From the IMG/VR virus record IMGVR_UViG_3300009104_001476: 64,000 nt of DNA, one strand, 5' to 3'. A program made the position numbers and the translations under genes. Of this stretch, positions 4,395 to 59,165 are shown one piece after another (position 1 is the stretch's first letter; each line of letters begins with the position of its first letter). This stretch comes from a virus. The notes under the pieces are model-generated. The model was not told the DNA's origin. It worked only from the letters and a program-made list of their open reading frames with translations, and ran no database searches.

Positions 4395-4547
4395 ATGAGG
4401 GTCAAGAAGGATAAATACTATGTTATTGTAAATAATAAAAATTATGTGCAAGGAGCCTTCCCCTTTACTGAAGAAGGAAAGAAAGAGGCCCAGAAATACT
4501 TAAGAAAAATAAATAAAAATAAAGAATATCACATTGAAGAAAGATAA
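4395..4547 (+). CDS. small hypothetical protein (50 aa, MRVKKDKYY...)
   Basis: Read manually; TATAAT at 4385-4390 just upstream. Confidence 0.5.
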   Translation: MRVKKDKYYVIVNNKNYVQGAFPFTEEGKKEAQKYLRKINKNKEYHIEER

Positions 4548-4643
4548 GCCATTATTCGTCATAATGTCTGATTATGTGTGAGCCGCTCGCATTTATTTTC
4601 TGTACAGACAAGCGGCTTGCTGGTAGATTGGGGTTGAAGTCAG

Positions 4644-5512: not shown

Positions 5513-5552
5513 AAAAACTTGCAAAATGATATTATAAATTTATAATATATAA

Positions 5553-6110: not shown

Positions 6111-6111
6111 C

Positions 6112-8087: not shown

Positions 8088-8089
8088 TT

Positions 8090-8194
8090 ATGGCTAACAA
8101 AGAAAAGAGAAAAAAAGAAAAAAAGAAACCTGCTAAAAAGACACCAGCGGAAAAAAGAAAAGAGAAGAGAGAAAAGAAAAGAAGAGGCAAGTAA
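8090..8194 (+). CDS. 34-aa very basic peptide
   Basis: Manual translation MANKEKRKKEKKKPAKKTPAEKRKEKREKKRRGK; abuts next ATG. Confidence 0.5.
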   Translation: MANKEKRKKEKKKPAKKTPAEKRKEKREKKRRGK

Positions 8195-9289
8195 ATGAGA
8201 GCTTATGTTCTAGGAGTCGGCAGGATGGGAACAGCCATTGCTTGGGCGATGGATAAATTAGGTTTTGAAGTGACAGGTATGGACACTAACCCTGACGCCG
8301 CAAACAATATGACAGGCTCTTTTTTTGTTGTTGATGACGCGGATGATATTTGTAAAGGCATCGTAGCAAACGGTCCAAGGCCAGACATTGTTATTAGCAG
8401 CTTGCCTTACCACCAAACGGAAGTGGTAGGCAAGTGGTGCGTAGATAACGAAGTACGCTATTGCGACTTAGGCGGCAGAGTAGATGTCTCGAAAAATATT
8501 AATGATCACGCCGAGCAGTTTGCGACTCGACCAGTTTTCACAGATTTAGGCTTAGCTCCCGGCTGGGTAAATATATTAGCCGAAGAGGGATGCAGGAAAT
8601 TCCATGGCTCTGCTGAAGAAGTTAAAATGATGGTCGGGGGCTTACCCGACTATTTAGAGAGCTCGAATAATCCATTGCGTTACGCACTTACTTGGTCTGT
8701 TGATGGATTGATCAATGAATATAGAGACGATTGCCTTATCCTTGAAGACGGAGAAGTAAAAACTGTAAAAGGAATGTCTGGGGTAGAACAGATAGAGGGC
8801 GAAAAGTTTGGACCCATGGAGGCTTTTTATACAAGTGGTGGCGCGTCACATTCAATTCACGACATGCAACGAAGAGGAGTTAAGAATTGCTCCTATAAAA
8901 CCATAAGGTACAGGGGTCATGGAGATATGGTTAGATTTTTGATTAGAGATTGCGATCTAGACGATGGAGCGTTAACTAAAATTTTCCGAGAAGGTTGCGG
9001 TACGGTAGATAAAGACGAGGTGTTTATCGTAGCAGAAGTGAAGGGCGGGGATAAAACTTGGAGACAGGAGAAGGTGATCAAATCTGACGAACAATTTTCA
9101 GCCATGCAAAAAGCTACGGCGTTTTCCATTTCCTCTGTAGCAGCGATTATGGCTCAAGGAAAGCTAGAGGGGAACATGGAACAGCGTAGAGACTATTGGA
9201 CTCAGTACCCAGCGGCCTTATCTTATGATAATGTGCCTTTTAATGAATTTAATAATAACTTAGAAAGATTATTGACTAGTGCTTTATAA
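8195..9289 (+). CDS. saccharopine dehydrogenase / lysine 6-dehydrogenase family
   Basis: VLGVGRMG, YCDLGG, DLGLAPG, VGGLP, WSVDGLINEY, EAFYTSGG, YKTIRYRGH. Confidence 0.9.
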   Translation: MRAYVLGVGRMGTAIAWAMDKLGFEVTGMDTNPDAANNMTGSFFVVDDADDICKGIVANGPRPDIVISSLPYHQTEVVGKWCVDNEVRYCDLGGRVDVSKNINDHAEQFATRPVFTDLGLAPGWVNILAEEGCRKFHGSAEEVKMMVGGLPDYLESSNNPLRYALTWSVDGLINEYRDDCLILEDGEVKTVKGMSGVEQIEGEKFGPMEAFYTSGGASHSIHDMQRRGVKNCSYKTIRYRGHGDMVRFLIRDCDLDDGALTKIFREGCGTVDKDEVFIVAEVKGGDKTWRQEKVIKSDEQFSAMQKATAFSISSVAAIMAQGKLEGNMEQRRDYWTQYPAALSYDNVPFNEFNNNLERLLTSAL

Positions 9290-9306
9290 AAGTATATCTT
9301 TTCCAG

Positions 9307-9918
9307 ATGATTAATTATTGCGATTTCTCAGAAAAAGAACTAATAAGTAAATCTGTAGAAGGTGAGAAAAAAGCCTTTGAAGAACTCTTGTCTAGAAATA
9401 AAGGCAGGGTAGAGGGGTGGATTTTATCATTCACCAAGCAGTCTGAAATTGTTCAGGATATTTTTCAAATAACTTCTCTAAAAGCTTGGAGATTCTTAGA
9501 TAAATTTAGAGGTGATTGCAAATTCAGCACTTGGATGTGCAATATTGCTAGAAATAGTTATTATGATTTTTATAGGGCGAAGCAAAGACGTCCAGAGATT
9601 TCTTTAGATGCCCTATTAGAGGAACAGAAGAAGAATGGAGGAGCTTTTGAGTTTTATAATTGTGAGACAGAAGAGCATCCGAGAAATAAAGAACAAGATT
9701 CAAATTATTATTTAACTGAAATAAGTAAAAAATTGGAGTTTTTAGACCCAAGACATAGAGACCCATTGATAATGTTTGTTGGAGAAGGCTTAGAGTATTC
9801 TGAAATTGCGGAGAAGTTGAATTGTCCGGTGGGGACTGTAATGTCTAGAATTTTTTACGCTAGAAAAAAAGCCCAAAAGATTTTGAGTCCTTTGAGAAAT
9901 GAGCTTATCACAAAATAG
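9307..9918 (+). CDS. ECF-type sigma-70 factor
   Basis: FRGDCKFSTWMCNIARN region 2; YSEIAEKLNCPVGTVMSRIFYAR region 4. Confidence 0.92.
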   Translation: MINYCDFSEKELISKSVEGEKKAFEELLSRNKGRVEGWILSFTKQSEIVQDIFQITSLKAWRFLDKFRGDCKFSTWMCNIARNSYYDFYRAKQRRPEISLDALLEEQKKNGGAFEFYNCETEEHPRNKEQDSNYYLTEISKKLEFLDPRHRDPLIMFVGEGLEYSEIAEKLNCPVGTVMSRIFYARKKAQKILSPLRNELITK

Positions 9919-18410: not shown

Positions 18411-18993
18411 ATTTTTTTCATTTCGGCCATTTATTGACGTTTTATTTTGCTGCTTACTCATGTTAGTAGCGATACTTTTCTTATTGAAAACCGAAGAGGA
18501 GAAAACTAAAATGCGCCCACCAAATGTCATCTATGAAGTTGTTTTAACTTGGGATGGTAAAAGCGGTGACGATTTAGACCTATACGTTCAGGCGGCTTCA
18601 GGACACGTCGTAAGCTTCAATAATAGAGAAGGGGGTAGCGGCAGTTTAATTAGCTTAGATCATGATGCTCTTGGCTTAAGGAACAATAGTCTCGGAGAAG
18701 GACAAGAGGGGCAGATTACGCCCTTTCATGAAGAAGTGGTATCTTTCAGGGGAGTTCTTGAGGGAGAGAACGTAGTGACTATTCATGTCTACGCAAAAAG
18801 GGACGACGAACCAATAAAAGCTACTATTAAATTAATTAGGGTTAAGCCTTTTAAAGAAGTCGTTACGAAAGAAATAGTATTTGAATCCGTAGGGCAAGAA
18901 AAAACCGCCTTTAGATTTAAGACAAGTAAGACCGCAGAGGTCATAGACATTAACGAGTTACCTGCTAAATTGGTTAGGTCTTTAGGACAATGA
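18403..18993 (+). CDS. ExbD/MotB-like single-TM protein with YfaP-like periplasmic domain
   Basis: N-terminal PFIDVLFCCLL (ExbD/TolR TM Asp motif); LTWD...DLDLYV. Confidence 0.65.
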   Translation: MRRFFSFRPFIDVLFCCLLMLVAILFLLKTEEEKTKMRPPNVIYEVVLTWDGKSGDDLDLYVQAASGHVVSFNNREGGSGSLISLDHDALGLRNNSLGEGQEGQITPFHEEVVSFRGVLEGENVVTIHVYAKRDDEPIKATIKLIRVKPFKEVVTKEIVFESVGQEKTAFRFKTSKTAEVIDINELPAKLVRSLGQ

Positions 18994-20721: not shown

Positions 20722-21006
20722 ATGCCAGACCAAGAAAAATTCATAAAATGCAGTTGTCACGGCGAGGGTATGCTACTTACCAAGTTTGACGACGAAGAAG
20801 AAATCTACGTTAGTTTTTGGCGAGAGGGCATAAATCCTGTTAAGCTAAGTTGGTGGATGAGGTTAAAGTTATGTTGGATGGCACTAACAAAAGGCAGCTA
20901 TTACGATGATCAGGTTATTCTAAATAGACAAAAATCTGTGGAACTTGCGTGTTGGTTAATTTTAGAATCTGGAGTATTAGACAAAAAAGATGAGAATAAC
21001 AATTGA
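20722..21006 (+). CDS. hypothetical protein
   Basis: ORF track. Confidence 0.6.
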   Translation: MPDQEKFIKCSCHGEGMLLTKFDDEEEIYVSFWREGINPVKLSWWMRLKLCWMALTKGSYYDDQVILNRQKSVELACWLILESGVLDKKDENNN

Positions 21007-27153: not shown

Positions 27154-28257
27154 GTGATCGATGAAGATAAAAAAATACTTAATGACTTTTTTGAGTCCTT
27201 GGTAGTAGGAAAGGAGACTTTTATAGGTTATCCCGTTAATACCCTTTTCGATTATTCTGAATTATTTAAATTTTTATCTATACCCCTGAACAACGTAGGC
27301 GACCCCTTTTGTTCTAGTTATTATGGCCTCGATTCAAGACTGATGGAAAGAGAGGTGTTGGATTGGTTTGCCAAACTCCACAACGCTCCATTAGATAATT
27401 ATTGGGGTTACGTTACAAATGGAGGTACGGAAGGTAATATGTATGGTCTTTATCTCGCTAGGGAACTGTATCCCAAAGGGGTTGTTTATTATTCGCAAGA
27501 CACGCATTATAGCGTGAGTAAAAATATTCGTATGTTAAACATGGAACACGTTATGATAAAGTCTCGTCGTAGCGGAGAAATGGATTACCAAGATTTACAT
27601 GAAATGATTTCAACTTGGCGTTCGGCTCCTCCTGTTATTTTCGCTAACGTGGGGACAACAATGAGAGAGGGTTTCGATGATATAAATGAAATAAAAAAAG
27701 TTTTAAGAGCTTTAGCCATCCCAGAGTATTATATTCATGCGGATGCGGCATTAGGAGGAATGACATTACCATTTATAGAAAATTCCCCTGCTTTTGATTT
27801 TACGACAGGCGTACAAAGTATGTCTATTAGTGGTCATAAATTTATAGGCTCTCCTTTGCCGTGCGGAGTTGTTTTAGCTTTAAAAAGTAATGTAGGTAGA
27901 GTAGCGAGGGCGGTAGAGTATGTAGGGTCTTTGGATAGCACGGTTAGTGGCTCTAGAAATGGCTTTACTCCCATACTTTTATGGTACGCGATAAAGAAAT
28001 TTGGATTTAATGGCTTCAAGAAAATGGTTAGAGGTTGCGTCAGAACAGCAGAATTAGCCGTTAGAAAGATGAACGACAGCAATATAAAGGCTTGGAAAAA
28101 CGACTATGCTATAACGGTAGTTTTCCCTAGACCCGCTGAAAATGTGGTAAAAAAGTGGAAATTAGCGGTACAAGACGATATTGCTCATATTATTTGTATG
28201 CCTCAAGTTAATGGGGATGTAATTAATAATGTAATAAAAGACATAAGAGAAAGGTGA
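27154..28257 (+). CDS. hdcA: PLP-dependent histidine decarboxylase
   Basis: GYP, NNVGDPF, YWGYVTNGGTEGN, HADAALGG, SGHKFIGSP, GSRNG. Confidence 0.88.
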   Translation: MIDEDKKILNDFFESLVVGKETFIGYPVNTLFDYSELFKFLSIPLNNVGDPFCSSYYGLDSRLMEREVLDWFAKLHNAPLDNYWGYVTNGGTEGNMYGLYLARELYPKGVVYYSQDTHYSVSKNIRMLNMEHVMIKSRRSGEMDYQDLHEMISTWRSAPPVIFANVGTTMREGFDDINEIKKVLRALAIPEYYIHADAALGGMTLPFIENSPAFDFTTGVQSMSISGHKFIGSPLPCGVVLALKSNVGRVARAVEYVGSLDSTVSGSRNGFTPILLWYAIKKFGFNGFKKMVRGCVRTAELAVRKMNDSNIKAWKNDYAITVVFPRPAENVVKKWKLAVQDDIAHIICMPQVNGDVINNVIKDIRER

Positions 28258-46385: not shown

Positions 46386-46438
46386 ATAATTTTATTTTAT
46401 TCTTGTGTCTGTTTTAACTATGTGCATAATTGATAAAG

Positions 46439-47386
46439 ATGAGCGACAAAACCACTAAACTATTTCCTGACATTGTTGGTCAGGACAAAGCAAAGAAGAA
46501 ACTTATGTTCTTCCATCGAGGCTATAAAGCCTCTGGGATCATTCCACACCTTATGTTTATCGCACCCAAGGGATGCGGTAAGACCACTCTTGCCAAAGCT
46601 ATTGGTAAGAACCTTGAGGGTGAGAAGGGCAAGCCAAAGCGTTTCCTTGAGATCAACTGTTCTACTATCAAGAACGTGAAGCAGTTCTTCAATCAAGTAA
46701 TCGTACCTCACGTTGCGAATAAAGAATGTACCGTTCTTTTTGACGAAGCCAGCGAGCTTCCCAAGGATGTGACAATGATGTTACTGACCTGTCTGAACCC
46801 GAACGAGAACAATCGTAACGAGTTTGCGTATGAAGATTATGTTGTTGATTTCGATTTTCGTATCCACTCGTTTCTGTTCGCCACTACCGAAGCTCATAAG
46901 ATTTTCCATGCGTTGATGGATCGTTGCGAGCGTATTGATCTGGAGGAATACTCCTATAATCAGTTAGGCACGATCATCTCTCGTCAGATGAAAGGTATTA
47001 AGTTTGAGAAGGGCGTTCTTGAGGATGTCGCCACTATCCTGCGAGGCAACGCCCGTGCTGCTCAAAAGATGGCAAACAACATGAAATCCTACTTAAAGGT
47101 TAAGGGTTCTGATAAGTTTATGAACAAAGATTGGGAGATCATGCGTGACGAATTGGGCATCCTACCTTTAGGCGTGAATCGTATTGAGCTTATCGTGTTG
47201 AAGGCACTGAAGGAGAAAAAAGAATGTTCACTGACTCACCTTGCTGCCAAGACGGGGTTGACTCCTCAATGTCTGCGTCAAGATTTTGAGATGTACCTTC
47301 AGAAGATGAATCTGATGGAGATTACAACCAGTGGTCGTGCGCTTACCAAAACAGGGCATGAATACTTGGAGCGGGAGGATGTTTAA
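46439..47386 (+). CDS. ruvB: RuvB-like Holliday junction branch-migration AAA+ ATPase
   Basis: DIVGQ, APKGCGKTTLA, LFDEA, ATTE, LMDRC, RGNAR, C-terminal winged helix ending GRALT. Confidence 0.85.
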   Translation: MSDKTTKLFPDIVGQDKAKKKLMFFHRGYKASGIIPHLMFIAPKGCGKTTLAKAIGKNLEGEKGKPKRFLEINCSTIKNVKQFFNQVIVPHVANKECTVLFDEASELPKDVTMMLLTCLNPNENNRNEFAYEDYVVDFDFRIHSFLFATTEAHKIFHALMDRCERIDLEEYSYNQLGTIISRQMKGIKFEKGVLEDVATILRGNARAAQKMANNMKSYLKVKGSDKFMNKDWEIMRDELGILPLGVNRIELIVLKALKEKKECSLTHLAAKTGLTPQCLRQDFEMYLQKMNLMEITTSGRALTKTGHEYLEREDV

Positions 47387-48441: not shown

Positions 48442-48920
48442 AGTTCTTTGAGAGATTGACAATTTAAGTTGCGGAAACGCGACAACAATTTAAGCTGACG
48501 ACGGTTGGCTTAAGGGAATGGCTGAACAACCCTCCATCATAAGGGGTAAGGCATAGGGATACGTGTTAGAGTATAATCGTATGAGACACGTGTTTCTAGT
48601 AGACTGGTAAACTTGAACTGTATTGTGCACTGGTCTTGATGGTAATGCAGCAATCCATCTTCCCATTAATTTTGTGCGTGGTGCTGGGTTACAGGCCACG
48701 TAACAGGAAGAAACACAGGTTACCTCAACCGGAAGCGCGTAAGTATTCCTCGCGTCTGCAAAGGGAGAAGCAGCGGGTAACCAACGTGAGATCCCAAAAT
48801 TTCCGTAGTCCAAAATCAAAGGGCTACGGTTTCAACAAGGTCGGGAAAAACAAACGCAGTTGATGCGCCCGTTAAAGATGAGTTCACACCGAACGTGACC
48901 ATCGCCTTGTTATTTTTTTT
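48442..48920 (+). ncRNA. candidate large structured ncRNA (~480 nt), family unassigned
   Basis: Own promoter (TTGCGT 48408, TATAAT 48430), about 10 hand-found helices, ends in T8; no credible ORF. Confidence 0.7.
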
Positions 48921-48929: not shown

Positions 48930-48970
48930 GCACTTGGCACGAATCGTGCTGCCCGATTTCAACCAAGTGT
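48930..48970. repeat. 41-bp palindromic element, copy 1
   Basis: GCACTTGGCACGAATCGTGC-T-GCCCGATTTCAACCAAGTGT. Confidence 0.95.
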
Positions 48971-48981
48971 CAAGCGTAAAG

Positions 48982-48990
48982 TTATTCACA
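48982..48990 (+). promoter_or_regulatory. DnaA-box match TTATTCACA
   Basis: Matches TTWTNCACA. Confidence 0.55.
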
Positions 48991-49279
48991 CCTCAAAAAA
49001 TTTCTTAAAATCAACGAATTTCACACCGGAGAAAGTGGGGGTAAACAAGAAATTTTCAGGCATGATACCTCACAAAAGCAGGGCTTTCTTTCAAAACAAT
49101 TACCCCCTTTGTCGCTCATTAATTGCCATAATTGATTGACAAACTATTTTGCCGCTCATTTGTGATCGACAAAAAAATGCATCTAATGTGCATTTAATGC
49201 TTGTCACAGGCTTAACTATGCTTATAATGGTTATAACAGTTTGAGACATTAACACTAGAAAAAAGGAACTATATATATT

Positions 49280-50182
49280 ATGCCTATAGAAGCAAAACAA
49301 CAGATTGATGAGGGCTACGACTTCACCGCCAAACAGGTTGAAGTACCCCATCCAATCACCGGAAAAAAATCCGGTTATTACATGAACATCCGTGAAGACA
49401 CGGGCGACATCATGGGGTGGACTACTGACCGTTACGGTCTGGTTAATCACCGTGACATAGTAGGGTTTGCAGACAATGCGTTTGCTGACCGTGGTATCGA
49501 GGTTAATCGTAAAGTTTACGTGACCGAAAACGGTGCGAAGTGCCGTGCGGTTTATGACCTTATCGGTTCGGAATATCAAGCGGAAGTTCCCCAAGTCGGT
49601 GACATTATGGGCTATCGTTTGACTGCTCAAAACTCGCTTGACCGTAGTCTTCGGATGGCTTATTCGTTAGGCTTAAAGCGTCTGGCTTGTTTGAATGGCA
49701 TGACCACAACCGAGTCGGAAGTGGAAATGACAAAGAAACATTCTTTGAATGTTAACTTGAACGAGGTGCTTTCTCCAAAAGCCTTGGATACTGCTCTTGC
49801 CAAGATGAAGCAGAGCCTGACTGTTTACGGTCGGTTGTCGCAGTCGGAAGTTTCTCAAGAGCAAGGAATCATTATCCTTCAGAACCTAGCAAATGCCAAG
49901 GTGTTTTCTGAAAAGGTGCGTGAGTCTATCGCTCAAGTTTGGAACGGCCAACCAGAGGGACTTGGCAGAGGTGGAGATGCCGATAAGAGTCGGAACCTTT
50001 ACAACCTTAACAATGCCGTCACGGAGCATTTGACCTATGAGGTTGCGGATACTCGTTTCGAGTATGCAAATCGTGTGACCTCTCAAGTCTTAAAGAGGTT
50101 CGACAAGGCGACTCGGAACCAAAAAGTTTTGGAGAAACTTTGGACTCCCGCCAAAAATGATCAAATAGTGATTACTGAGTAG
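49280..50182 (+). CDS. DUF932 family protein
   Basis: DRYGLVNH, NSLDRS, RLACLNGM, NLYNLNNAVTE. Confidence 0.75.
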   Translation: MPIEAKQQIDEGYDFTAKQVEVPHPITGKKSGYYMNIREDTGDIMGWTTDRYGLVNHRDIVGFADNAFADRGIEVNRKVYVTENGAKCRAVYDLIGSEYQAEVPQVGDIMGYRLTAQNSLDRSLRMAYSLGLKRLACLNGMTTTESEVEMTKKHSLNVNLNEVLSPKALDTALAKMKQSLTVYGRLSQSEVSQEQGIIILQNLANAKVFSEKVRESIAQVWNGQPEGLGRGGDADKSRNLYNLNNAVTEHLTYEVADTRFEYANRVTSQVLKRFDKATRNQKVLEKLWTPAKNDQIVITE

Positions 50183-50194
50183 GCTACCCAACCG

Positions 50195-50234
50195 ATCCCC
50201 TCGCTGCGTTAATCGTGGCGGGGGGATTTTTTTT
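50195..50234 (+). terminator. rho-independent terminator
   Basis: ATCCCCTCGCTGCG/CGTGGCGGGGGGAT + T-run. Confidence 0.85.
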
Positions 50235-50303
50235 GCCCGTTTAAATAATAACTATTAAATAACGATTATTAAATAGACCCGAAAAAATAATAACACCAAA
50301 TAA

Positions 50304-50344
50304 GCACTTGGCACGGATCTTGCAGCCTGATTTTTAACTAGTGG
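50304..50344. repeat. 41-bp palindromic element, copy 2 (left half is a consensus sigma54 site TGGCACGGATCTTGCA)
   Basis: GCACTTGGCACGGATCTTGC-A-GCCTGATTTTTAACTAGTGG. Confidence 0.9.
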
Positions 50345-50407
50345 TCAAGCGAAAAAAAAAGAAAAAAAATGCTTGCATGAGTCTTAACCATCCCTATAAT
50401 TAAGAAC

Positions 50408-50587
50408 ATGAGCAAAACATACGGAACCTATCAAGCAAGAAACGCTGTCAAAGCAGCACAAGTCACCAACCATATCAAAGCACAGAAAAAGATTGGCGTA
50501 ACTCACGAGGAAGCTAAGGCTGAAGCCTATCGGATCTTCAACATCAAGGCAGCATTACCAATCTTAACCCGTCACTTCTTACTTTAG
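50408..50587 (+). CDS. small hypothetical protein (59 aa), leaderless
   Basis: Manual translation MSKTYGTYQARN...; promoter 50373-50400. Confidence 0.65.
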   Translation: MSKTYGTYQARNAVKAAQVTNHIKAQKKIGVTHEEAKAEAYRIFNIKAALPILTRHFLL

Positions 50588-50626
50588 GGGTTGACACGAG
50601 GCTAACTTTCGCTATAATTAAGGAAG

Positions 50627-50818
50627 ATGAAAATTAAAGGAATCAGAAACGGTTCGTTATATTATAACGAAGGAACCCAACGAGTAGAACGTGTTCGTAG
50701 TAAAGCGAATAGTCAATCAGTTTTCACCACTGTCCATAACAAAGCGTTGGCTGTGGTTCCGGCTAAATCTTTGAATTTGGCTAGTGGAGAACAGATTGCA
50801 AGCTACTTGCAATCATAA
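50627..50818 (+). CDS. hypothetical protein, leaderless
   Basis: Promoter TTGACA 50591/TATAAT 50613. Confidence 0.7.
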   Translation: MKIKGIRNGSLYYNEGTQRVERVRSKANSQSVFTTVHNKALAVVPAKSLNLASGEQIASYLQS

Positions 50819-50901
50819 ACATAACCCTCTCGCCCTTTCTTTACTTTTGGGTGAGAGGGTTTTTACTTGTTAAGAATATAACTATCATTATAATTGGAAC
50901 T

Positions 50902-51474
50902 ATGAAAGAAACACTTAAAGATTTAGGGAATACCGCTTTGGATATTCTGTTAACCCTTATTTTAACTTTGCTTGCCTTGCATATGCTTTTGTTTGCTGCT
51001 GTGTCAGTAGCATCAGCGCAAGAGCTAACGCCCGACCAAACAGTTGTCGCAAAGACTATTCTTGGCGAAGCGCGTGGAGAAGGTAAGGCGGGTATGTATG
51101 CCGTTGCTTGTGTCATAGCGCAACGAGCAATTCTGCGGAACAAAACTCCAAAAGAAGTTTGCAAACAGCCTTCGCAATTTTCTTTTTGGGTTAAAGATAA
51201 AAAAACTACCCTTGACGACAGGAATAGAGCAACGGTTGAGCGGCTTATGAAGCACGATATCGAATCAGTGCGTTACGCTAAAGCTTTGGCTATTCATGTA
51301 ATGAAAGTAGATCGTTCTTATACTGACCACGCAGACCACTATTGCGCGACAAGAGTTAGTCCTTACTGGGTAAGAGGGAGGACACCTGTAAGAATCATAG
51401 GCAATCATAAATTCTTTAGAATTAACTCCAGAGTTTTTGGAATAACAAAATCTTCTGTCTTGACTCAACCTTAA
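50902..51474 (+). CDS. SleB/Hydrolase_2 cell-wall hydrolase
   Basis: TILGEARGEG..GMYAVACVI, QPSQFSFW, IGNHKF; N-terminal signal/TM. Confidence 0.88.
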   Translation: MKETLKDLGNTALDILLTLILTLLALHMLLFAAVSVASAQELTPDQTVVAKTILGEARGEGKAGMYAVACVIAQRAILRNKTPKEVCKQPSQFSFWVKDKKTTLDDRNRATVERLMKHDIESVRYAKALAIHVMKVDRSYTDHADHYCATRVSPYWVRGRTPVRIIGNHKFFRINSRVFGITKSSVLTQP

Positions 51475-51496
51475 CCATCATTATAATTAAGAAACA

Positions 51497-51826
51497 ATGA
51501 AGGCAATCATAGAAATCGAATTAGGCAACTCATCATTTGGCAACAACGATGCTGAAAGACTATTTGAGATGCGAAACGTCATTGAAAGACTAATGGACAA
51601 CGCTGACCGTATTATGGCAGCAGACGTTGGAGACTTCACAACCGCGCAAGACGCTAACGGTAACACGGTCGCTAGAATGGACATCGTAGAAGGTGGCAGG
51701 ACACCAAAGATGTACGGTCTGGAAAATCAAGCACCTGATCAGCAACTGAACGTAGACCCCGCAGACAAGTATCAAGAGATGCGGAATGAAAACTGGGCAG
51801 ACTCAAACGTCAGCGACCCATACTAA
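51497..51826 (+). CDS. hypothetical protein, leaderless
   Basis: Promoter 51460-51487. Confidence 0.7.
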   Translation: MKAIIEIELGNSSFGNNDAERLFEMRNVIERLMDNADRIMAADVGDFTTAQDANGNTVARMDIVEGGRTPKMYGLENQAPDQQLNVDPADKYQEMRNENWADSNVSDPY

Positions 51827-52061
51827 AATTATGAGCGACTATTGGACCGGACTTGTTAACTATAAACCAAAAAAGAAAATGACTGATAAAGAATCAAAGC
51901 AATTAGATATCTGTCTTGCGTTGTTGGCAATGGCATCCGCAAAGGGAGCGCACCCCACGGATATGCTTAACGCATTCACCTTTGATATGAATCTAATAAG
52001 GAACGGGGAAGATCCTACTGAAACTCAAAAACTAATTGAGTAATTTCTGATATAAAAACTT

Positions 52062-52102
52062 GCACTTTATGTAAATCGGGCCGCACGATTCGTGCCAAGT
52101 GC
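52062..52102. repeat. 41-bp palindromic element, copy 3
   Basis: GCACTTTATGTAAATCGGGC-C-GCACGATTCGTGCCAAGTGC. Confidence 0.95.
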
Positions 52103-52123
52103 AAGTAAAGTTTTCGAAAAAAG

Positions 52124-52132
52124 TTATTCACA
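52124..52132 (+). promoter_or_regulatory. DnaA-box match TTATTCACA
   Basis: Between element 3 and TTGACA promoter at 52138. Confidence 0.55.
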
Positions 52133-52173
52133 ATGCCTTGACAGGAGGGCGTTTCTGTGTTATATTTATTTCA

Positions 52174-52320
52174 ATGAAAGTGAGAAGGAAAAGAAAACGC
52201 AGAGCAAGAGCGAGAGTGAACCGCGAAGGCTTTATGAATAGCGCAACCCGTGAACATCGCGTGAAGAAGGGTAAAGGCTCTTTTAGGCGTAGAAAAAAAC
52301 ATCAAAAAAAATTCGATTAG
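52174..52320 (+). CDS. arfA: ArfA-like alternative ribosome-rescue factor
   Basis: REHRVKKGKGSFRRRKKH vs ArfA KKGKGSYxRKGKH; 48 aa, leaderless. Confidence 0.65.
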   Translation: MKVRRKRKRRARARVNREGFMNSATREHRVKKGKGSFRRRKKHQKKFD

Positions 52321-52375
52321 GGCTTGCATTGTCCTGCTCGACCTGTCATAATCCTATCCAGAAAGTAAATCAATT

Positions 52376-52816
52376 ATGTATAACAACCACACAAACACAA
52401 AACTAGAGTATCAAGACTTCAGCACTAAAATCATCGTTGCCATCACTGGCGCACCTGAAGATGTGGAAGCTGATTTCTGGGGATTCTTCAACACCAACGC
52501 CACCGATGCGGGATTGCATCATTTTGGCGAGGCGCGTATTCATTGGCTAACACCTACCACCGCGCAATTTTACACAACCCGTGAGCGTTTGCTTGCTGGT
52601 ATGGAATTGCGAGCTTTGAACAAACTTCTAAACGAGTCTGCCGATGGTTACAAAGGCACAAAAGGCGGTGCGTTGGCAGATGCTAAACAAATGGCGCAAG
52701 AGTGGTTTGACTCGATGGAACGTGTCACGGACATCATCAAAAAGAATGTGCGAGAGACTACTTACGGCATGGGAACCATCTCGGCCGAAAAGCCTGACAG
52801 CGATTATAGTGCTTGA
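52376..52816 (+). CDS. hypothetical protein
   Basis: ORF track; promoter TTGCAT..CATAAT upstream. Confidence 0.7.
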   Translation: MYNNHTNTKLEYQDFSTKIIVAITGAPEDVEADFWGFFNTNATDAGLHHFGEARIHWLTPTTAQFYTTRERLLAGMELRALNKLLNESADGYKGTKGGALADAKQMAQEWFDSMERVTDIIKKNVRETTYGMGTISAEKPDSDYSA

Positions 52817-52848
52817 ATCAATCTTAACTATCTGTATAATTAACAAAG

Positions 52849-53592
52849 ATGAACGACCTATTAAAATTTGGAGATCCGAACTCCAAGCTAAAGAAAATGA
52901 TTCGGAAGCTTGGGCTTAAACTAAAAACCTTCACGCTTCCCGCTGGACACACTTGCCCCGGAGCAAAAGACTGTTTATCAAAAGCAGATCCTGAAACCGG
53001 AAAGATTCAAGACGGGCCAGATACGGAGTGGCGATGCTTTGCCGCTAGTGCAGAGGCAACGTATCCGTCATTGCGTAAAATGGTTTGGCATAACTTCGAC
53101 TTGCTAAAGCAAGCTTTGAAATTAGACCAAGAGGCAGGATTTGAGAACTGCCCACACACTACCGATTTAATCAATCGGAGCTTGCCCAAAAAGTTTGACA
53201 TCATGCGTGTCCACGTTGGCGGGGATTTCTTTTCAAAGCGTTACTTGCAAGCGTGGGTTGACGTTGCAAGGCAAAACCCTGACAAGGTTTTTTATGCCTA
53301 CTCGAAAAGTCTTAATTTCTTTTTGGAATGGGCGTTGCCTTCTAACCTTGTCTTGACTGCCTCGCGTGGTGGCAAGCATGATGAATTGATTGACGTTGCC
53401 GGTTGGAAAGAAGCTGTTGTTGTTTACAGTGAGCAAGAAGCAATCGACAAAGGTTTAGAAATCGACCACGACGACACACACGCAGCGTTTGGAAAAGAAA
53501 ACTTTGCGTTGTTAATTCACGGGACACAGCCAGCAGGGAGTATGGCAAGTAAGGCGTTGCAACTTCTTAAACGGGGAAAGGTTGCCGCGTGA
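52849..53592 (+). CDS. GP88-like phage protein
   Basis: FTLPAGHTCPGAKDC, CFAA, RVHVGGDF, FYAYSKS, DHDD. Confidence 0.8.
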   Translation: MNDLLKFGDPNSKLKKMIRKLGLKLKTFTLPAGHTCPGAKDCLSKADPETGKIQDGPDTEWRCFAASAEATYPSLRKMVWHNFDLLKQALKLDQEAGFENCPHTTDLINRSLPKKFDIMRVHVGGDFFSKRYLQAWVDVARQNPDKVFYAYSKSLNFFLEWALPSNLVLTASRGGKHDELIDVAGWKEAVVVYSEQEAIDKGLEIDHDDTHAAFGKENFALLIHGTQPAGSMASKALQLLKRGKVAA

Positions 53593-53706
53593 GCTTAGAA
53601 GTAATATTTATAATTGCCTTTTTAATATTTCTTTTCCAGCTACAAAAATGAAAATCCGAATAACAAACAAAGGCCCGCCCTAAAATTTTTCTTAAAAAAA
53701 GCTTGA

Positions 53707-53747
53707 CCACTCGCCAAAAATCGGGCAGCACGATTCGTGCCAAGTGC
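53707..53747. repeat. 41-bp palindromic element, copy 4
   Basis: CCACTCGCCAAAAATCGGGC-A-GCACGATTCGTGCCAAGTGC. Confidence 0.95.
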
Positions 53748-53890
53748 TCAAAGCTAGGTGGGACATTGGCTGTCCACCCACTTAAATTATTTTTCAGACC
53801 GCTATTTGAGCCCACAAAAACAGGGTTATTCTGCACCATTTTTTTTTGCGTATCACTTGCATTATTCGTAAAAGTGGAGTATATTAAGGT

Positions 53891-54169
53891 ATGTTAAACA
53901 AAGAACTAACAGTAGAACAAGAAGCTCAACTCCTACTCAACCAAGAGATTGAGGTAACAAGCTCACGCATCATGCAGCTTTGGGGTAAGCGTGGAATCGT
54001 TGAGGCTGTCATGGCAGATGGTCGTACGTTAGACATTAAGCTAGCTGATGGCAAGAGCGTTTTCCTAGATGTCACCTTTGTGGGTGAAGTGCGGGAAGGC
54101 ATAGCGTTTGCCAAGCAAGAACAGTCTCTTGGCCCAATCGCTAACAGCGTAGTGAAAAGCACTCTTTAG
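53891..54169 (+). CDS. hypothetical protein, leaderless
   Basis: TTGCAT-N17-TATATT upstream. Confidence 0.65.
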   Translation: MLNKELTVEQEAQLLLNQEIEVTSSRIMQLWGKRGIVEAVMADGRTLDIKLADGKSVFLDVTFVGEVREGIAFAKQEQSLGPIANSVVKSTL

Positions 54170-54206
54170 GCTTTACAGGCATTTAACTATCCCTATAATT
54201 ATAACA

Positions 54207-54467
54207 ATGATGAACGAACTAGACCAATTCAAAGAAGATACCGCGATGCGCCTGTTTGGGCGTAGTCGTCGCCTTGCCATCGCTGGCAACCAATGCGTTA
54301 AGTGTGGCGCACACGATCTTGAGTTCCGTGACGAACTCAGCAGCAAGGAGCATGGCATCTCCGGTTTCTGCCAGTCCTGTCAGGACGACATCTTTGGCCC
54401 CAGCGATGAGGAGAAAGAGGAGGTTCTTGGAATCACTCACCAAATGTTTGGAGGTGAAGAATGTTAG
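54207..54467 (+). CDS. small zinc-finger-like protein
   Basis: CVKC...FRDELS..E..ISGFCQSCQD. Confidence 0.7.
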   Translation: MMNELDQFKEDTAMRLFGRSRRLAIAGNQCVKCGAHDLEFRDELSSKEHGISGFCQSCQDDIFGPSDEEKEEVLGITHQMFGGEEC

Positions 54468-55018
54468 ACATCACTGACAAAAAAGCTGTAAGAAAAACTT
54501 TCCGCCGTGATGTTTACCGCAATCTTCATTTCAGAGATGAGGTTGTCTATTCTGTGCGTAAAGATGGTCTGGTTGAGGGTCACGCCCTTTGTTATGTAAT
54601 GGATGGCGTTACCTTTCACGTTGGGCCTAAAGGCAACCAGCGTGTGCGTGATGAGGAGCGTAAAAACGTTCACGCTGTTATTCGCGGGCACGTTATCAAT
54701 GCCGTTTGGTATGATGAGGATGAGATGGAATGGGCCAAGAGTGCTGCCCAACAATTGGCTGAGATAGAAATGTGTGGTGTGCCTGTGAGTCGTAACACGA
54801 ATGTAAGTGACTTGGATGATCCGCGCGCGTGGGAGCCTATGTATAAATGGGTAGAGGTTAAGTATAACCCTTATAAGTTCAAGAGCTTTGTCAGCCCTGT
54901 TTATTTGCCATTTGGTTCCGAGGAGCCAGAATTCAGACCCATCTTTGAGGCTCGTAAGGTTGTTATTTACAGCGAGGACAACAAGAGCAAAGTCATGGCA
55001 ATGGTTCCAATTATTTAA
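54461..55018 (+). CDS. conserved hypothetical phage protein
   Basis: VYRNLH...RKNVHAVIRG...YNPYK. Confidence 0.75.
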   Translation: MLDITDKKAVRKTFRRDVYRNLHFRDEVVYSVRKDGLVEGHALCYVMDGVTFHVGPKGNQRVRDEERKNVHAVIRGHVINAVWYDEDEMEWAKSAAQQLAEIEMCGVPVSRNTNVSDLDDPRAWEPMYKWVEVKYNPYKFKSFVSPVYLPFGSEEPEFRPIFEARKVVIYSEDNKSKVMAMVPII

Positions 55019-55059
55019 CTTGCCCTTCTTAACTAATTCAACGAAACCTTATTCTGTAT

Positions 55060-55308
55060 ATGAAAAATTCAAAGAAAACTGATAAAATCCTGAACGAACT
55101 CCGTCGTCAGGGATGCACGATTAAAGAGAAGAAAAACAATGTGATGATTATTCCTCCTGATTCGAATGTGGAAGCTTACACTGTCCATAGAAGTGACAGA
55201 CACGTTGGAGCATTGATTGACCATTGCTTGAAAAGATATAGCCACCTTTTGAATTTCAAGAAGCTGGCAAAGTATCACAAGAGATTTCAAAACGGAGCGA
55301 AGGACTAA
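55060..55308 (+). CDS. HicA-like dsRBD-fold protein
   Basis: LNELRRQGCTIKEKKNNVMIIPP...YTVH. Confidence 0.45.
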   Translation: MKNSKKTDKILNELRRQGCTIKEKKNNVMIIPPDSNVEAYTVHRSDRHVGALIDHCLKRYSHLLNFKKLAKYHKRFQNGAKD

Positions 55309-55312
55309 ACAC

Positions 55313-55340
55313 GAGCGGCGCGAGCCGCTTTTTATTTTTT
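55313..55340 (+). terminator. rho-independent terminator
   Basis: AGCGGC-GCGA-GCCGCT + T-run. Confidence 0.85.
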
Positions 55341-55344
55341 ACTT

Positions 55345-55385
55345 GCACTTGGCACGAATCCGGCAGCACGATTCATGCCAAGTGC
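55345..55385. repeat. 41-bp palindromic element, copy 5
   Basis: GCACTTGGCACGAATCCGGC-A-GCACGATTCATGCCAAGTGC. Confidence 0.95.
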
Positions 55386-55388
55386 TAT

Positions 55389-55397
55389 TGTGAATAA
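55389..55397 (-). promoter_or_regulatory. DnaA-box match TTATTCACA
   Basis: TGTGAATAA on + strand, 3 bp after element 5. Confidence 0.55.
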
Positions 55398-55424
55398 CTT
55401 TCTGAAAAAAATGCCTTCCAGCCC

Positions 55425-55453
55425 TTGACAAACGGTCGTTTGTGTGTTATATT
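55425..55453 (+). promoter_or_regulatory. representative TTGACA-N17-TATATT/TATACT promoter with GTGT extended -10
   Basis: Same layout at 52138, 56947, 57302, 58547 (weaker 53857). Confidence 0.8.
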
Positions 55454-55461
55454 TATACAAG

Positions 55462-55902
55462 ATGAACGAAGAAAGACTAAAACCACTTTTTGATTTAGAC
55501 GGAACCCTAATCCGTGAGGATCGTGACAGCGATCGCCTTTTTGATTTCTTTCGCCCTCACGCTATCCTCGCACTAACAGAAGATGATTTAACTCCTCTCG
55601 GCGTACTCGTTAGAGACTCTGGAAAAGAATTTGATATCCTTACAGCGAGAGGCCATAAAAACGCAGAATTTGTTCGCATCGCTCTTACTGCTCTCGGATT
55701 CAATGTAAACAAGATCGTCACCGTTGGAGTAGACATTAACTCTCCAGAAGACATGGATAACGTCAGCAGCAAAAGAGTAGCGGAAAGGAAAATCAGAATC
55801 GCCAAATTTGTTCAAAGAAAATTAGTTGACAATGACGAACGGAATCTGGTAGGATTGGGCGAGTTAGGAGAATTAGTAAGCCAAGATCAAAAGGAATTTT
55901 AA
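55462..55902 (+). CDS. HAD-superfamily hydrolase
   Basis: LFDLDGTL, LTARG, VDND. Confidence 0.7.
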   Translation: MNEERLKPLFDLDGTLIREDRDSDRLFDFFRPHAILALTEDDLTPLGVLVRDSGKEFDILTARGHKNAEFVRIALTALGFNVNKIVTVGVDINSPEDMDNVSSKRVAERKIRIAKFVQRKLVDNDERNLVGLGELGELVSQDQKEF

Positions 55903-55904
55903 TT

Positions 55905-56138
55905 ATGATAAAGAACGGAAAAGAACAAAACGTAGTACCCACCACACGCAAACAAAACCTTGCTGCTGCCAAGGCTTGTGACGACCACTATGAGGCTTGC
56001 AGCTTGTTTCGGGCGTTGCAGTACGCCAACAACATGGGAACAGGTGAGGATGACTTTGACGAATTGGCAGAGCATTTCATCAACAAGCAAGGGCTTACGG
56101 ACTACTGCGAAAACGGATTTAAGAAAGTTAATCGGTAG
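55905..56138 (+). CDS. hypothetical protein
   Basis: ORF track. Confidence 0.6.
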   Translation: MIKNGKEQNVVPTTRKQNLAAAKACDDHYEACSLFRALQYANNMGTGEDDFDELAEHFINKQGLTDYCENGFKKVNR

Positions 56139-56179
56139 GACTACGGATGTCCTACCCCCTGTGGTATACTATACGTATG
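56134..56179 (+). promoter_or_regulatory. inverted-repeat promoter, copy A
   Basis: GGTAGGAC-TACGGAT-GTCCTACC-N8-TATACT-N6-ATG. Confidence 0.8.
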
Positions 56180-56347
56180 AAAATGATTATGAAAGACATA
56201 GAACTAAACGAAAACGGAAACGCCGTGGTAGACGGCACAGAGTATGAAGTGCGTGGATTTGACCACGAAGGACAAGAGGCGATCGTGATTCACGAATTGG
56301 ATTTGATTTCTTACGACGAAGGCGATAACTGGGAGGAAATGGAATAG
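56177..56347 (+). CDS. small acidic protein, leaderless
   Basis: MKMIMKDIELNENG... Confidence 0.65.
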   Translation: MKMIMKDIELNENGNAVVDGTEYEVRGFDHEGQEAIVIHELDLISYDEGDNWEEME

Positions 56348-56350
56348 ATT

Positions 56351-56614
56351 ATGACATTTAACGATTTGAAATTTAGCGACATATCTGAAACGCATGGAGA
56401 AGATGCAATTCAGGCGTATGTGGAATTGCCGAATGGTTATGATGTTTCCGTGGTGAAGCATCGGTTTTCATACGGTGGCGAAAAAGGTATGTATGAGATT
56501 GGTTGCTTCTTTAACAATCACATGGTTGATCCTGCTGACTGGGGTGATACCGTCAAGGGTTGGTTGAATGAAAGTGATGTAGAAGATTGGATAAATGTGA
56601 TTAAAAAATTATGA
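56351..56614 (+). CDS. conserved hypothetical phage protein
   Basis: PNGYDVSVV...SYGGEKGMYEI. Confidence 0.75.
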   Translation: MTFNDLKFSDISETHGEDAIQAYVELPNGYDVSVVKHRFSYGGEKGMYEIGCFFNNHMVDPADWGDTVKGWLNESDVEDWINVIKKL

Positions 56615-56858
56615 GAGAATTAGATTCCATTATGTTTATTGTTTTCTTTTTAATGCTTTGCGCTATTGGCGTTTTTGTTATAGGCGTAGCGCATGACGCT
56701 TACATTGTTTGGTATATAAACAATTAAAATGAATATTTCAACAAACAAAAAAACAGGCACGACTACAATCGTAATTTCTTCTAAATTAAAAGAGAAATTT
56801 TATAGTATTCTTATAGCTTTTGCTTTGGGGTTAATTATCGGTTGGATATTTTAGGCTT

Positions 56859-56899
56859 GCACTTGGCACGAATCCGGCTGCCCGATTTATGCCAAGTGG
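56859..56899. repeat. 41-bp palindromic element, copy 6
   Basis: GCACTTGGCACGAATCCGGC-T-GCCCGATTTATGCCAAGTGG. Confidence 0.95.
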
Positions 56900-56981
56900 T
56901 CAAGAACTTCTTAACAGGGAGAGAATAACTTTCTTTATTTAAAGGGTTGACAAATGGGCGTTTGCGTGTTATATTTATACC

Positions 56982-57293
56982 ATGAAGATGATACTGAAAG
57001 CTGCCCGCAACGCAAGCCGCCGCACTCGTAACCGTGTCCGTGAGCACGGGCCCGTGTTCGAGGACGTTACCCGTCAACATACTGGGCGTAACTTGGGCAG
57101 GGGAGTGGTGGATGGTATGGACTGTGTATTGGTGCGTGCTGGTAGCTGGTTTGGCTGGCTACCCATAGATGAGATTGAGCGCACCACTGAGGGTGGGGTT
57201 AAGTTCTGCTGGCCATTAGATGAGGATGGTGACTTAGGTAGCGCAGGGTGGCTATGCTTAAACCATCAGGCATGGCTTAAAGAGCGTGAATAA
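56982..57293 (+). CDS. hypothetical protein, leaderless
   Basis: TTGACA 56947-N17-TATATT-N6-ATG. Confidence 0.7.
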   Translation: MKMILKAARNASRRTRNRVREHGPVFEDVTRQHTGRNLGRGVVDGMDCVLVRAGSWFGWLPIDEIERTTEGGVKFCWPLDEDGDLGSAGWLCLNHQAWLKERE

Positions 57294-57336
57294 CTTACCC
57301 CTTGACAAGCACCCCTATGTGTGTTATATTCTTACC

Positions 57337-57579
57337 ATGATGAATGACATGAGCAACACCACCAACCACGACGCGCGTATCTCCTGCGAGGAGGCCTTCA
57401 CTGAGGACATGGGCCCTGCCCATTGGGCTAATGAACCTGAGCAGCCCACCCACAAGGAGGTAGCTGGTGTGTGTGAGGATGCCCCTTGCTGTGGGTGCTG
57501 TGGTGACAGCATGGACGATGGCTATGGCACGTATGCTGATGATGCGTGGCATGATGCCAACGAGTACCCTGACTGGTAG
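57337..57579 (+). CDS. small acidic protein with CEDAPCCGCCG motif
   Basis: Leaderless promoter at 57302; Cys cluster. Confidence 0.7.
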   Translation: MMNDMSNTTNHDARISCEEAFTEDMGPAHWANEPEQPTHKEVAGVCEDAPCCGCCGDSMDDGYGTYADDAWHDANEYPDW

Positions 57580-57583
57580 GGTA

Positions 57584-57624
57584 GCACTTGGCACGAATCG
57601 TGCAGCCAGATCGGGGCCAAGTGG
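57584..57624. repeat. 41-bp palindromic element, copy 7
   Basis: GCACTTGGCACGAATCGTGC-A-GCCAGATCGGGGCCAAGTGG. Confidence 0.95.
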
Positions 57625-57638
57625 TCAAGAACTTTCTT

Positions 57639-57914
57639 TTATTCTTTCTCGTCTTCCCAGTAGTAGCCTTCCGGTGGCATGATCTCGTTAAGGGTTGTAC
57701 CTGTTGCCTTGCTCACTATGTATGGCTTAAGCTCTGCCATGTCTACCATACCCCATTCTTTAGCGAAGCCCATTACATAGCCGAAGCTCAAGCCGTAGCT
57801 GTCTTCTTCTTCTAGGTAATACTCCCAACCATTACGCAGGATGATGTGTTGAGCCACAGCGAAAGGCTCTTTCGTGTCTTCATTGTTCGAGTTGATGATA
57901 TTTCTTGTTTTCAT
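57639..57914 (-). CDS. hypothetical protein (DUF2958-like?)
   Basis: GWEYY...FGYVMGFAKEWGMVDMAEL. Confidence 0.65.
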   Translation of the reverse strand: MKTRNIINSNNEDTKEPFAVAQHIILRNGWEYYLEEEDSYGLSFGYVMGFAKEWGMVDMAELKPYIVSKATGTTLNEIMPPEGYYWEDEKE

Positions 57915-57921
57915 AATTCAA

Positions 57922-58164
57922 TTACCTTTCAACACCAAGCTCTTTGTGGAGCTTGTTAATCTTATTAGTAGTGTGATTCCAAATCACTTTCATATCATTG
58001 GTGCGGTAAATCGCAGCACTACCAACACCGCCAAAGTGTTTACCATGAATTCTGACTTCAACGTCATTAACTTCAATTTGTGTCACAACGTCAAAGCGCG
58101 TGATGTTCTCAGCAATAAATTCTTGCTCTTCTTTATTTAGTTCTATGTTTTTCATATTCTTCAT
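57922..58164 (-). CDS. hypothetical protein, leaderless
   Basis: MKNMKNIELNKEE..., driven by IR-promoter copy B. Confidence 0.7.
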   Translation of the reverse strand: MKNMKNIELNKEEQEFIAENITRFDVVTQIEVNDVEVRIHGKHFGGVGSAAIYRTNDMKVIWNHTTNKINKLHKELGVER

Positions 58165-58207
58165 GCGTCTAGTATACCATACAGGGTGGGACATCCGTAG
58201 TCCTACC
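58162..58207 (-). promoter_or_regulatory. inverted-repeat promoter, copy B
   Basis: GGTAGGAC-TACGGAT-GTCCCACC-N8-TATACT-N6-ATG on - strand. Confidence 0.8.
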
Positions 58208-58403
58208 AGTTAATTTCTTTCACTCGAATGCTGCCGAGTCGGGCAACATCAGGAAACATCTTTGCGGCTACTCTGTGAGCGTGTGCCATATCAAATGCTT
58301 GAATAGTTTCTGTTTGCTCGCAAGCGGGACGGCTAGGGTCAACTTGCGTTACTAGGGTTAGTTGGAATAGTTTGTCTTTTATCATGTCTGTTTCAATCAT
58401 CAT
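58203..58403 (-). CDS. hypothetical protein, leaderless
   Basis: MMIETDMIKDK..., driven by IR-promoter copy C. Confidence 0.65.
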   Translation of the reverse strand: MMIETDMIKDKLFQLTLVTQVDPSRPACEQTETIQAFDMAHAHRVAAKMFPDVARLGSIRVKEINW

Positions 58404-58446
58404 GCGTATAGTATAGCACATGAGGTGGGACATCCGTAGTCCTACC
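58401..58446 (-). promoter_or_regulatory. inverted-repeat promoter, copy C
   Basis: Same layout as copy B. Confidence 0.8.
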
Positions 58447-58475
58447 AAAAAGAAAGTTAGATTTTTTTTACTTGA

Positions 58476-58516
58476 GCACTTGGCACGAATCGTGCCGCAC
58501 GATCTATGCCAAGTGC
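58476..58516. repeat. 41-bp palindromic element, copy 8
   Basis: GCACTTGGCACGAATCGTGC-C-GCACGATCTATGCCAAGTGC. Confidence 0.95.
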
Positions 58517-58519: not shown

Positions 58520-58528
58520 TGTGAATAA
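58520..58528 (-). promoter_or_regulatory. DnaA-box match TTATTCACA
   Basis: TGTGAATAA on + strand, 3 bp after element 8. Confidence 0.55.
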
Positions 58529-58605
58529 CTTTATGCAGAAACACCCTTGACAAAGGGCGATTTATGTGGTATACTATATGTATTGAGAGTGAGAGATTAA
58601 AGATT

Positions 58606-58776: not shown

Positions 58777-58777
58777 T

Positions 58778-58823
58778 GGTGGGACAGCGGATGTCTCACC
58801 CCCTGTGCTATACTATACGTATG
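58778..58823 (+). promoter_or_regulatory. inverted-repeat promoter, copy D
   Basis: GGTGGGAC-AGCGGAT-GTCTCACC-N8-TATACT-N6-ATG. Confidence 0.8.
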
Positions 58824-59165
58824 AAAATGATTATGAAAGAACAAACAAACAAAGCAAACAACCTCATCCTCGGTGCGGTTTACATCAACGCAAACACGGG
58901 CGCACCTTGCCGCCTCGTTAACATCGTATCCTGCCAAGGTGTTTGGCTAGAGACTTATGATGGTCAAGGCTATGGTGATCTAGTTAAGTTTAAGGATTGC
59001 CATTATGCTGACATCGATGAGGTGAATGATTATCTTGAAGATCACCGTGTTTACAACGCGAGCAAGAAAGCTCCTACTCATAAGCCTGTTAACTATGACA
59101 CGTATTGGAACGTGCAAGGTTATTACGAAGATAGCTATGGCAACGACATTCGTTGCAGAGACTAA
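58821..59165 (+). CDS. hypothetical protein, leaderless
   Basis: MKMIMKEQ..., same first codons as 56177 gene. Confidence 0.7.
   Translation: MKMIMKEQTNKANNLILGAVYINANTGAPCRLVNIVSCQGVWLETYDGQGYGDLVKFKDCHYADIDEVNDYLEDHRVYNASKKAPTHKPVNYDTYWNVQGYYEDSYGNDIRCRD

Follow-up and report, generated by a model that had tools for sequence, protein, structure and literature searches.

Of the bacterial sigma factors, sigma-54 (RpoN) alone remains locked until it is opened by an ATPase. Stoperators of cluster A mycobacteriophages are asymmetric sites of 13-14 bp that are oriented with transcription, occur genome-wide, and are bound by a known phage repressor. In T4-type phages, promoter-early stem-loop (PeSL) cassettes undergo homologous recombination at short repeats (PMC2839356, PMC4122927; Arbiol et al. 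2010, Comeau et al. 2014). We analyzed a stretch of 64,000 nucleotides (the window), corresponding to bases 32028-96027 of the 117,535-base virus record IMGVR_UViG_3300009104_001476 (approximately 69% complete), in which eight 41-bp elements lie among small early genes of an uncultured marine phage. The robust prediction from sequence comparison is that these quasi-palindromes, which are conserved and oriented, bind protein and mark where one shufflable early cassette ends and the next begins. In regards to the ligand, we consider host sigma-54 RNA polymerase below.

The elements consist of two 20-bp arms around one base and align in register without indels. Each generally has one strong half, which reads CACTTGGCACGAATC-NN-GC, and a decayed opposite half. 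The eight copies, with the strand of the strong half, are as follows.

48930-48970, plus strand: element 1, with GTGC-T at the -12 position of the strong half, a T-run before it, and 14 of 20 pairs.
50304-50344, plus strand: element 2, with a plus half that is a perfect TGGCAC-N5-TTGCA and the GG lost in the other half.
52062-52102, minus strand: element 3, with the strong half antisense to the genes.
53707-53747, minus strand: element 4, with the strong half antisense.
55345-55385, both strands: element 5, with two strong halves and 17 of 20 pairs.
56859-56899, plus strand: element 6; the upstream open reading frame (ORF) ends 4 nt before it.
57584-57624, plus strand: element 7, located 4 nt after an ORF and forming the left border of the only minus-strand gene block.
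58476-58516, both strands: element 8, with two strong halves and 17 of 20 pairs, forming the right border of the minus-strand block.

All eight elements are located between ORFs within 9.6 kb, and the motif was absent from the rest of the 117,535-base record. The G+C content of the stretch that holds them is raised, at 0.41-0.45 versus approximately 0.37. The chance expectation is nil, with no match in 100 shuffles and none for a reversed control pattern. The first-pass annotation had given the same centers, spacings, and 20+1+20 layout, and these were borne out. Its half-site counts were also reproduced: all 16 halves keep CACT-N8-ATC-N2-GC and 13 of the 16 keep TGG-N10-GC. The left half of copy 2, described there as full consensus, matches TGGCAC-N5-TTGC perfectly, and the best half of copies 3 and 4 is indeed antisense. 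In contrast, the palindromes are not exact as claimed, since only 11-17 of the 20 positions are complementary and copy 2 has no hairpin potential, and just two copies are within three mismatches of the 41-bp consensus that had been proposed. The two halves differ in character. The strong half contains a perfect 13-bp dyad. The decayed half has a recurring form of its own (GCCCGATTT ... AGTGG, then TCAAG) and retains only the symmetric frame GC, GAT, and AGTG.

We fetched 14 related viral loci using the conserved gene at 46430-47386, just upstream of the region. A region of this kind, including strong promoters and the decamer of the window (see below), is present in all 14. The boundary palindromes are lineage-specific, with poly-G/poly-C stems in some lineages and unrelated dyads in others. 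The motif of the window clade was found in a metagenome scan in 35 distinct copies on 22 marine contigs; the equivalent scan of viral contigs returned just three unrelated single sigma-54-type promoters. A distant relative (58% marker-protein identity; record 96% complete) carries seven elements with a 15+1+15 layout and a different inner sequence, and these occur nowhere else in its 162 kb. The wider family conforms to TTGGCACG-N6-GC-W-GC-N6-CGTGCCAA. Scanning viral contigs with TTGGCACG-N6-GC-N-GC-N6-CGTGCCAA gave 64 distinct copies in 34 loci on 20 contigs, which share marker genes with the window phage at 30-80% protein identity. The same palindrome pattern matched twice in 596 Gb of prokaryote genomes, and one of the two matches is a viral contig binned into a metagenome-assembled genome (MAG). 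A few short TTGGCACG-N6/7-CGTGCCAA palindromes have no GC center, with only 6-7 nt between the arms. In L063, L073, and other loci, the palindromes often start 0-5 nt past a stop codon or directly at the 3' end of a tRNA gene. Locus L018 contains solitary non-palindromic TTGGCACG-N4-YTGCT sites with a good consensus fit on the minus strand (18600-18620 and 20826-20846); they point away from the next promoter and are near other lineage-specific dyads. In the literature searched, no phage was described as having paired sigma-54-like palindromes, in agreement with the first-pass annotation, which knew of none.

The likeness to sigma-54 promoters was evaluated in the window and in the wider family. 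In the window, every element has at least one half within 0-2 mismatches of the TGGCAC-N5-TTGC core. Six of the eight elements are at most one mismatch from it, and there is no other such site in 117 kb. In the wider family, a half reads TTGGCACG, six mostly G/C bases, GC, and then A or T. The A or T after GC, which is the center base, was present in 110 of 112 half-sites, and GC-W-GC was also retained in 19 copies that the search pattern had not selected for it. The gene-sense half is the nearer of the two to the consensus and more often has T at -14 (36 of 66 versus 10 of 66 for the other half) and A at -11 (41 versus 24 in the same 66 copies), although the copies are related and these counts are not independent. 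Sigma-54 promoter logos are loosest at -27, -21, and -20. Among the 15 decayed arms, substitutions occur at -27, -21 (always C to T), and -20, and the bases at -25, -23, and -22 are unchanged in every one. By sequence, the halves agree with the sigma-54 -24/-12 core in their conserved letters, in spacing, in the A or T that follows GC, and in which substitutions are tolerated.

The reading that we tentatively prefer, at somewhat short of an even chance, is that the elements are marks at boundaries to which the sigma-54 polymerase of the host binds, for the most part non-productively, and that they also serve as crossover points. The elements would mark the boundaries of PeSL-like early-gene cassettes, and their likeliest ligand would be host sigma-54 RNA polymerase reading TTGGCACG at -24 and GC with A or T at -12. 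Most copies may hold the polymerase as a silent closed complex that would insulate the units from one another or form a roadblock between them, and that might also be a sink for sigma-54. We infer both this ligand and the silent-complex role; the latter is suggested because the sites face each other, point either way, are followed by a G+C-rich stretch, and have no activator or enhancer. Sense-pointing consensus copies such as element 2 might still fire given a host activator. The repeated identity of the elements would supply homology for general recombination.

The elements of the window do not behave as ordinary promoters, as had been noted. Elements 3 and 4 have an antisense site only, and element 7 points into convergent genes, so they lack the orientation expected of promoters. 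A sigma-70 reading of the flanking TTGA(C) was rejected because no -10 partner lies at a sensible spacing. Searches of the whole record and the 96%-complete relative found neither a sigma-54 DNA-binding domain nor a true activator or recombinase, which extends to both the earlier statement that the window has no gene for sigma-54, a bacterial enhancer-binding protein, or a recombinase. PF00158 gave one signal only, from the Walker A motif in a RuvB homologue without a GAFTGA loop. No repeated upstream (enhancer-like) site was seen at the elements, and an activator could be supplied by the host.

Besides the missing sigma-54 and activator genes, several observations weigh against sigma-54 polymerase as the ligand. 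The decayed half in the window clade loses GG yet holds GC, GAT, and AGTG invariant, and the strong half retains CACT and AATC, for which sigma-54 has no requirement. Because positions that sigma-54 does not need are invariant, some symmetric reader or constraint must exist. Positions -15/-14 are rarely TT and mostly GG, GT, or CG, and the stretch that would need to melt is G+C-rich. The strong half shows no sense bias in the window clade (8 sense versus 14 antisense). Sister lineages bear quite different palindromes at the same boundaries, and the shared boundary role therefore need not involve sigma-54. Searches by tblastn with rIIA, polymerase, and terminase and a protein-atlas look-up assigned no host, and the only hint of rpoN is that a related viral contig is binned in a Pseudomonadales MAG that has rpoN. 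Finally, with approximately 250,000 windows scanned, one repeat family may resemble a 10-letter consensus by chance.

The invariant symmetric frame is what would be expected if the elements were operators of a dimeric or tetrameric DNA-binding protein, of phage or host origin, with one strong and one weak half-site, that regulates or insulates the cassettes. We consider this a serious possibility, although on balance we lean against it. The sigma-54 likeness would then be coincidental or would derive from the inner GCACG-N3-CGTGC dyad preceded by TTG. CACT, ATC, and GC are mirrored by GC, GAT, and AGTG, invariant and approximately one helical turn apart, and the palindromic layout suits a dimer. 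The perfect 13-bp dyad in the strong half and the presence of GCACG-N3-CGTGC in about one-third of the family half-sites point the same way, as do the short palindromes without a GC center and the lack of pairing covariation described below. The replacement of one palindrome by another at the same place in related lineages is expected of co-evolving regulator/operator pairs. However, no DNA-binding domain was found in the cassette ORFs, and when 3303 ORFs from loci with and without TTGGCACG elements were clustered, no gene family followed the element type. In lineages that differ in their palindromes, the winged helix of the neighboring, conserved RuvB-like protein stays the same. An invariant 8-mer at fixed spacing in phages that are 30-40% identical in protein is unusual for a phage regulator, and neither the sense bias at -14 and -11 nor the sigma-54-like tolerance of substitutions is predicted by an operator. 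Both the sigma-54 trap and the dimeric-protein operator raised in the first-pass annotation survive, with the sigma-54 likeness of the larger family on one side and, on the other, a symmetric frame in the clade that has no sigma-54 rationale.

We then consider whether the elements act as hairpins or as double-stranded DNA. In the wider family, the inner six bases are complementary at 2.59 of 6 positions within an element versus 2.85 of 6 between shuffled partners. In the window clade, 76.9% of cells pair versus 76.8% in shuffles, and the covariation score equals that of the control. The invariant parts are the arms and the GC-W-GC center and, in the window clade, CACT, ATC, and their mirror images; the positions between them drift. 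The elements look like double-stranded DNA sites, predicted to bind protein, rather than hairpins, because neither the clade nor the wider family shows pairing covariation. It is improbable that they are instead RNA attenuators, terminators, processing sites, or 3' stabilizers of the upstream transcript, or DNA cruciforms that start recombination. Single-strand folding gives this some credit, since six or seven of the eight elements beat shuffles (-8.5 to -16.5 kcal/mol, z -2 to -5.7), but element 2 cannot fold (-1.3 kcal/mol, z +1.6). Elements 6 and 7 sit 4 nt after an ORF, copies in relatives directly follow stop codons or tRNA 3' ends, poly-G/poly-C stems occupy the same boundaries in relatives, and a RuvB homologue is encoded beside the array. 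The stem-loops of PeSLs are themselves terminators (PMC2839356). Against a terminator role, no U-tract follows the elements, and an intrinsic-terminator scan flagged only part of element 4 on the minus strand; elements 2 and 5 are already preceded by true, canonical terminators. No Rfam family was found at the elements. The conservation rests in sequence, not in pairing.

The clade contigs are collinear with the window and differ from it cassette by cassette. In L030, L039, and L051, the 1.5-kb cassette between elements 5 and 6 is absent; a single element stands there, flanked by the sequence that lies to the left of element 5 and by that to the right of element 6. In L028 and L039, the gene at 55444-55902 (152 amino acids) has the opposite orientation and is located in the block bounded by elements 7 and 8; in L031 and L043, it comes directly after element 4. 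In L034, the plus strand carries the 90-residue gene that occupies 57922-58194 on the minus strand of the window, and in L029 the 92-residue gene at 53891-54169 is found close to element 7. Locus L028 has an inversion of the block that corresponds to 54620-55373, and one end of this block is at an element. Gene content therefore changes at element boundaries between relatives, which was a check proposed in the first-pass annotation. Some junctions are at promoters and not at palindromes (L034). Searches of the record (G000) and three relatives (G001, 96% complete; G002; G003) found no tyrosine or serine recombinase (integrase, resolvase) and no Y1 transposase, and general homologous recombination at short repeats is for this reason the economical mechanism. 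The earlier proposal of PeSL-like cassette shuffling is supported by the break points at the elements, and its cruciform or site-specific mechanism is not, given the missing covariation and recombinase.

It is accordingly very improbable that the elements are targets of a site-specific recombinase or transposase that moves cassettes, as with integron attC or REP/BIME. Imperfect palindromes that border cassettes and that conserve their outer arms while varying inside would suit such an enzyme, and the elements are end points of both deletions and inversions. However, no such enzyme is encoded in the record or the 96%-complete relative, the L034 junctions at promoters are expected of general homologous recombination, and the single-base center is unlike known crossover spacers. 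The position of the elements, their pattern of conservation, the lack of pairing covariation, and the coincidence with rearrangement end points are direct observations.

A stronger form of the sigma-54 proposal is that the head-to-head core arrays trap the sigma-54 polymerase of the host as silent closed complexes. Replication of the phage DNA would raise the number of sites above that of the few sigma-54 molecules in the cell; sigma-54-dependent stress or defense programs would be shut down, and the bound complexes would insulate adjacent early cassettes. We regard capture on this scale as unlikely.

The elements are part of a larger module. The typical order at a boundary is the end of the upstream unit, with or without a canonical terminator, the element, a DnaA-box-like decamer, an A-rich tract, a sigma-70 promoter, and the next small genes. 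The -35 of the sigma-70-type promoter is 51-68 nt from the element center. The accompanying features in the window are as follows.

55389-55398, minus strand: DnaA-box-like decamer GTTATTCACA, 4 nt from element 5.
48981-48990, 52123-52132, and 58520-58529, either orientation: further copies of the decamer adjoining elements.
55425-55453, plus strand: strong near-consensus sigma-70-type promoter downstream of element 5.
52138-52166, 56947-56975, and 58547-58575: equivalent sigma-70-type promoters.
50194-50234, plus strand: canonical intrinsic terminator that belongs to the upstream unit and is distinct from element 2.
55313-55336: second canonical terminator, which precedes element 5.
57639-58403, minus strand: three small ORFs exactly between elements 7 and 8, with homologues at other places and on the opposite strand in relatives.

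The decamer is also conserved in relatives with other palindromes, and one relative has a perfect TTATCCACA. The cassette genes are mostly orphans; the recognizable products are DUF932, cell-wall hydrolase, GP88-like, and L5 gp82-like proteins. A second repeat family was observed on both strands of the region, in which an 8-7-8 inverted repeat (GGTAGGAC ... GTCCTACC) precedes a -10 of the form TATACT and then a start codon, with copies at 56134-56181, 58160-58225, 58400-58447, and 58777-58824 of the window. The genes that bear this repeat are those that change place and strand among relatives.

The gene at 46430-47386 (plus strand), at the 5' edge of the cassette region, encodes a 318-residue protein that PHROGs labels 'clamp loader' and that is a RuvB homologue with an AAA domain and a RuvB_C winged helix. 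The top matches in a profile search were RuvB structures (E 5.6e-17). The protein is kept at 54-69% identity in all relatives, and no RuvA was seen. It was considered as a hidden activator and rejected, since it has no GAFTGA-type loop, its nearest structures are RuvB, and it is equally conserved alongside other palindromes. Just upstream of element 1, Rfam manA RNA (RF01745) was detected at 48491-48669 (plus strand) with 71.9 bits versus a gathering score of 55.2.

One strand carries almost all genes of the phage, which encodes a DnaE-type polymerase, DnaB, rIIA, DNA ligase, and terminase and portal proteins. No cultured relative exceeds approximately 30% protein identity, the best isolates being 25-31% identical, and a megablast search of GenBank phages with the element region for near relatives gave zero matches. 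A basic ORF of 48 residues at 52174-52320 (plus strand) matches Pfam ArfA weakly (E 0.0011, 18.8 bits; cut-off 25.5) and, if real, would be a weak hint of a beta- or gammaproteobacterial host. An ORF of 2584 residues at bases 2124-9878 of G000 (locus L052) had no match in PHROGs, Pfam, or PDB sequences. The window also contains a saccharopine-dehydrogenase-like gene (8195-9289) and a gene for a pyridoxal phosphate-dependent (histidine-decarboxylase-like) decarboxylase (27154-28257), which may act in amine or polyamine metabolism; several glycosyltransferase and sulfotransferase genes surround them.

If sigma-54 polymerase binds the elements, they would be a means, widespread among lytic marine phages and not described before, of exploiting or disabling sigma-54, and approximately 100 natural non-productive sites would be available for studying closed-complex trapping. 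If another protein binds, they would be a well-defined, deeply conserved boundary operator of shufflable cassettes. The PeSL principle, in which regulatory repeats double as recombination points, would extend to an unrelated group of marine phages.

The region resembles PeSL cassettes in that repeated intergenic modules are located among small orphan genes in a hyperplastic region. The modules of both combine a strong sigma-70-type promoter, an A/T-rich upstream tract, and a palindromic component, and indels, replacements, and relocations end at them with no dedicated recombinase. The window phage differs in that it is not T4-type, having a DnaE-type polymerase and DnaB and no close isolate. 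Its palindrome stands apart from the promoter as a 41-bp unit on the upstream side and lacks a terminator tail, its elements conserve sequence without pairing covariation, and a sigma-54-type core has not been described for PeSLs. In regards to RpoN -24/-12 promoters, the elements share TTGGCACG, the 10-bp spacing from GG to GC, the A or T after GC, and the tolerant positions. In contrast to RpoN promoters, the sites form head-to-head pairs in which a single base separates the two GC, they are often antisense, -15/-14 is mostly not TT, the melting stretch is G+C-rich, and neither an activator gene nor an enhancer site accompanies them; the paired form is nearly absent from bacterial genomes. 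As with stoperators, many copies of one protein site, here a predicted one, lie between phage transcription units and may act on elongating polymerase. Unlike stoperators, the sites of the window are quasi-palindromic and are confined to one region.

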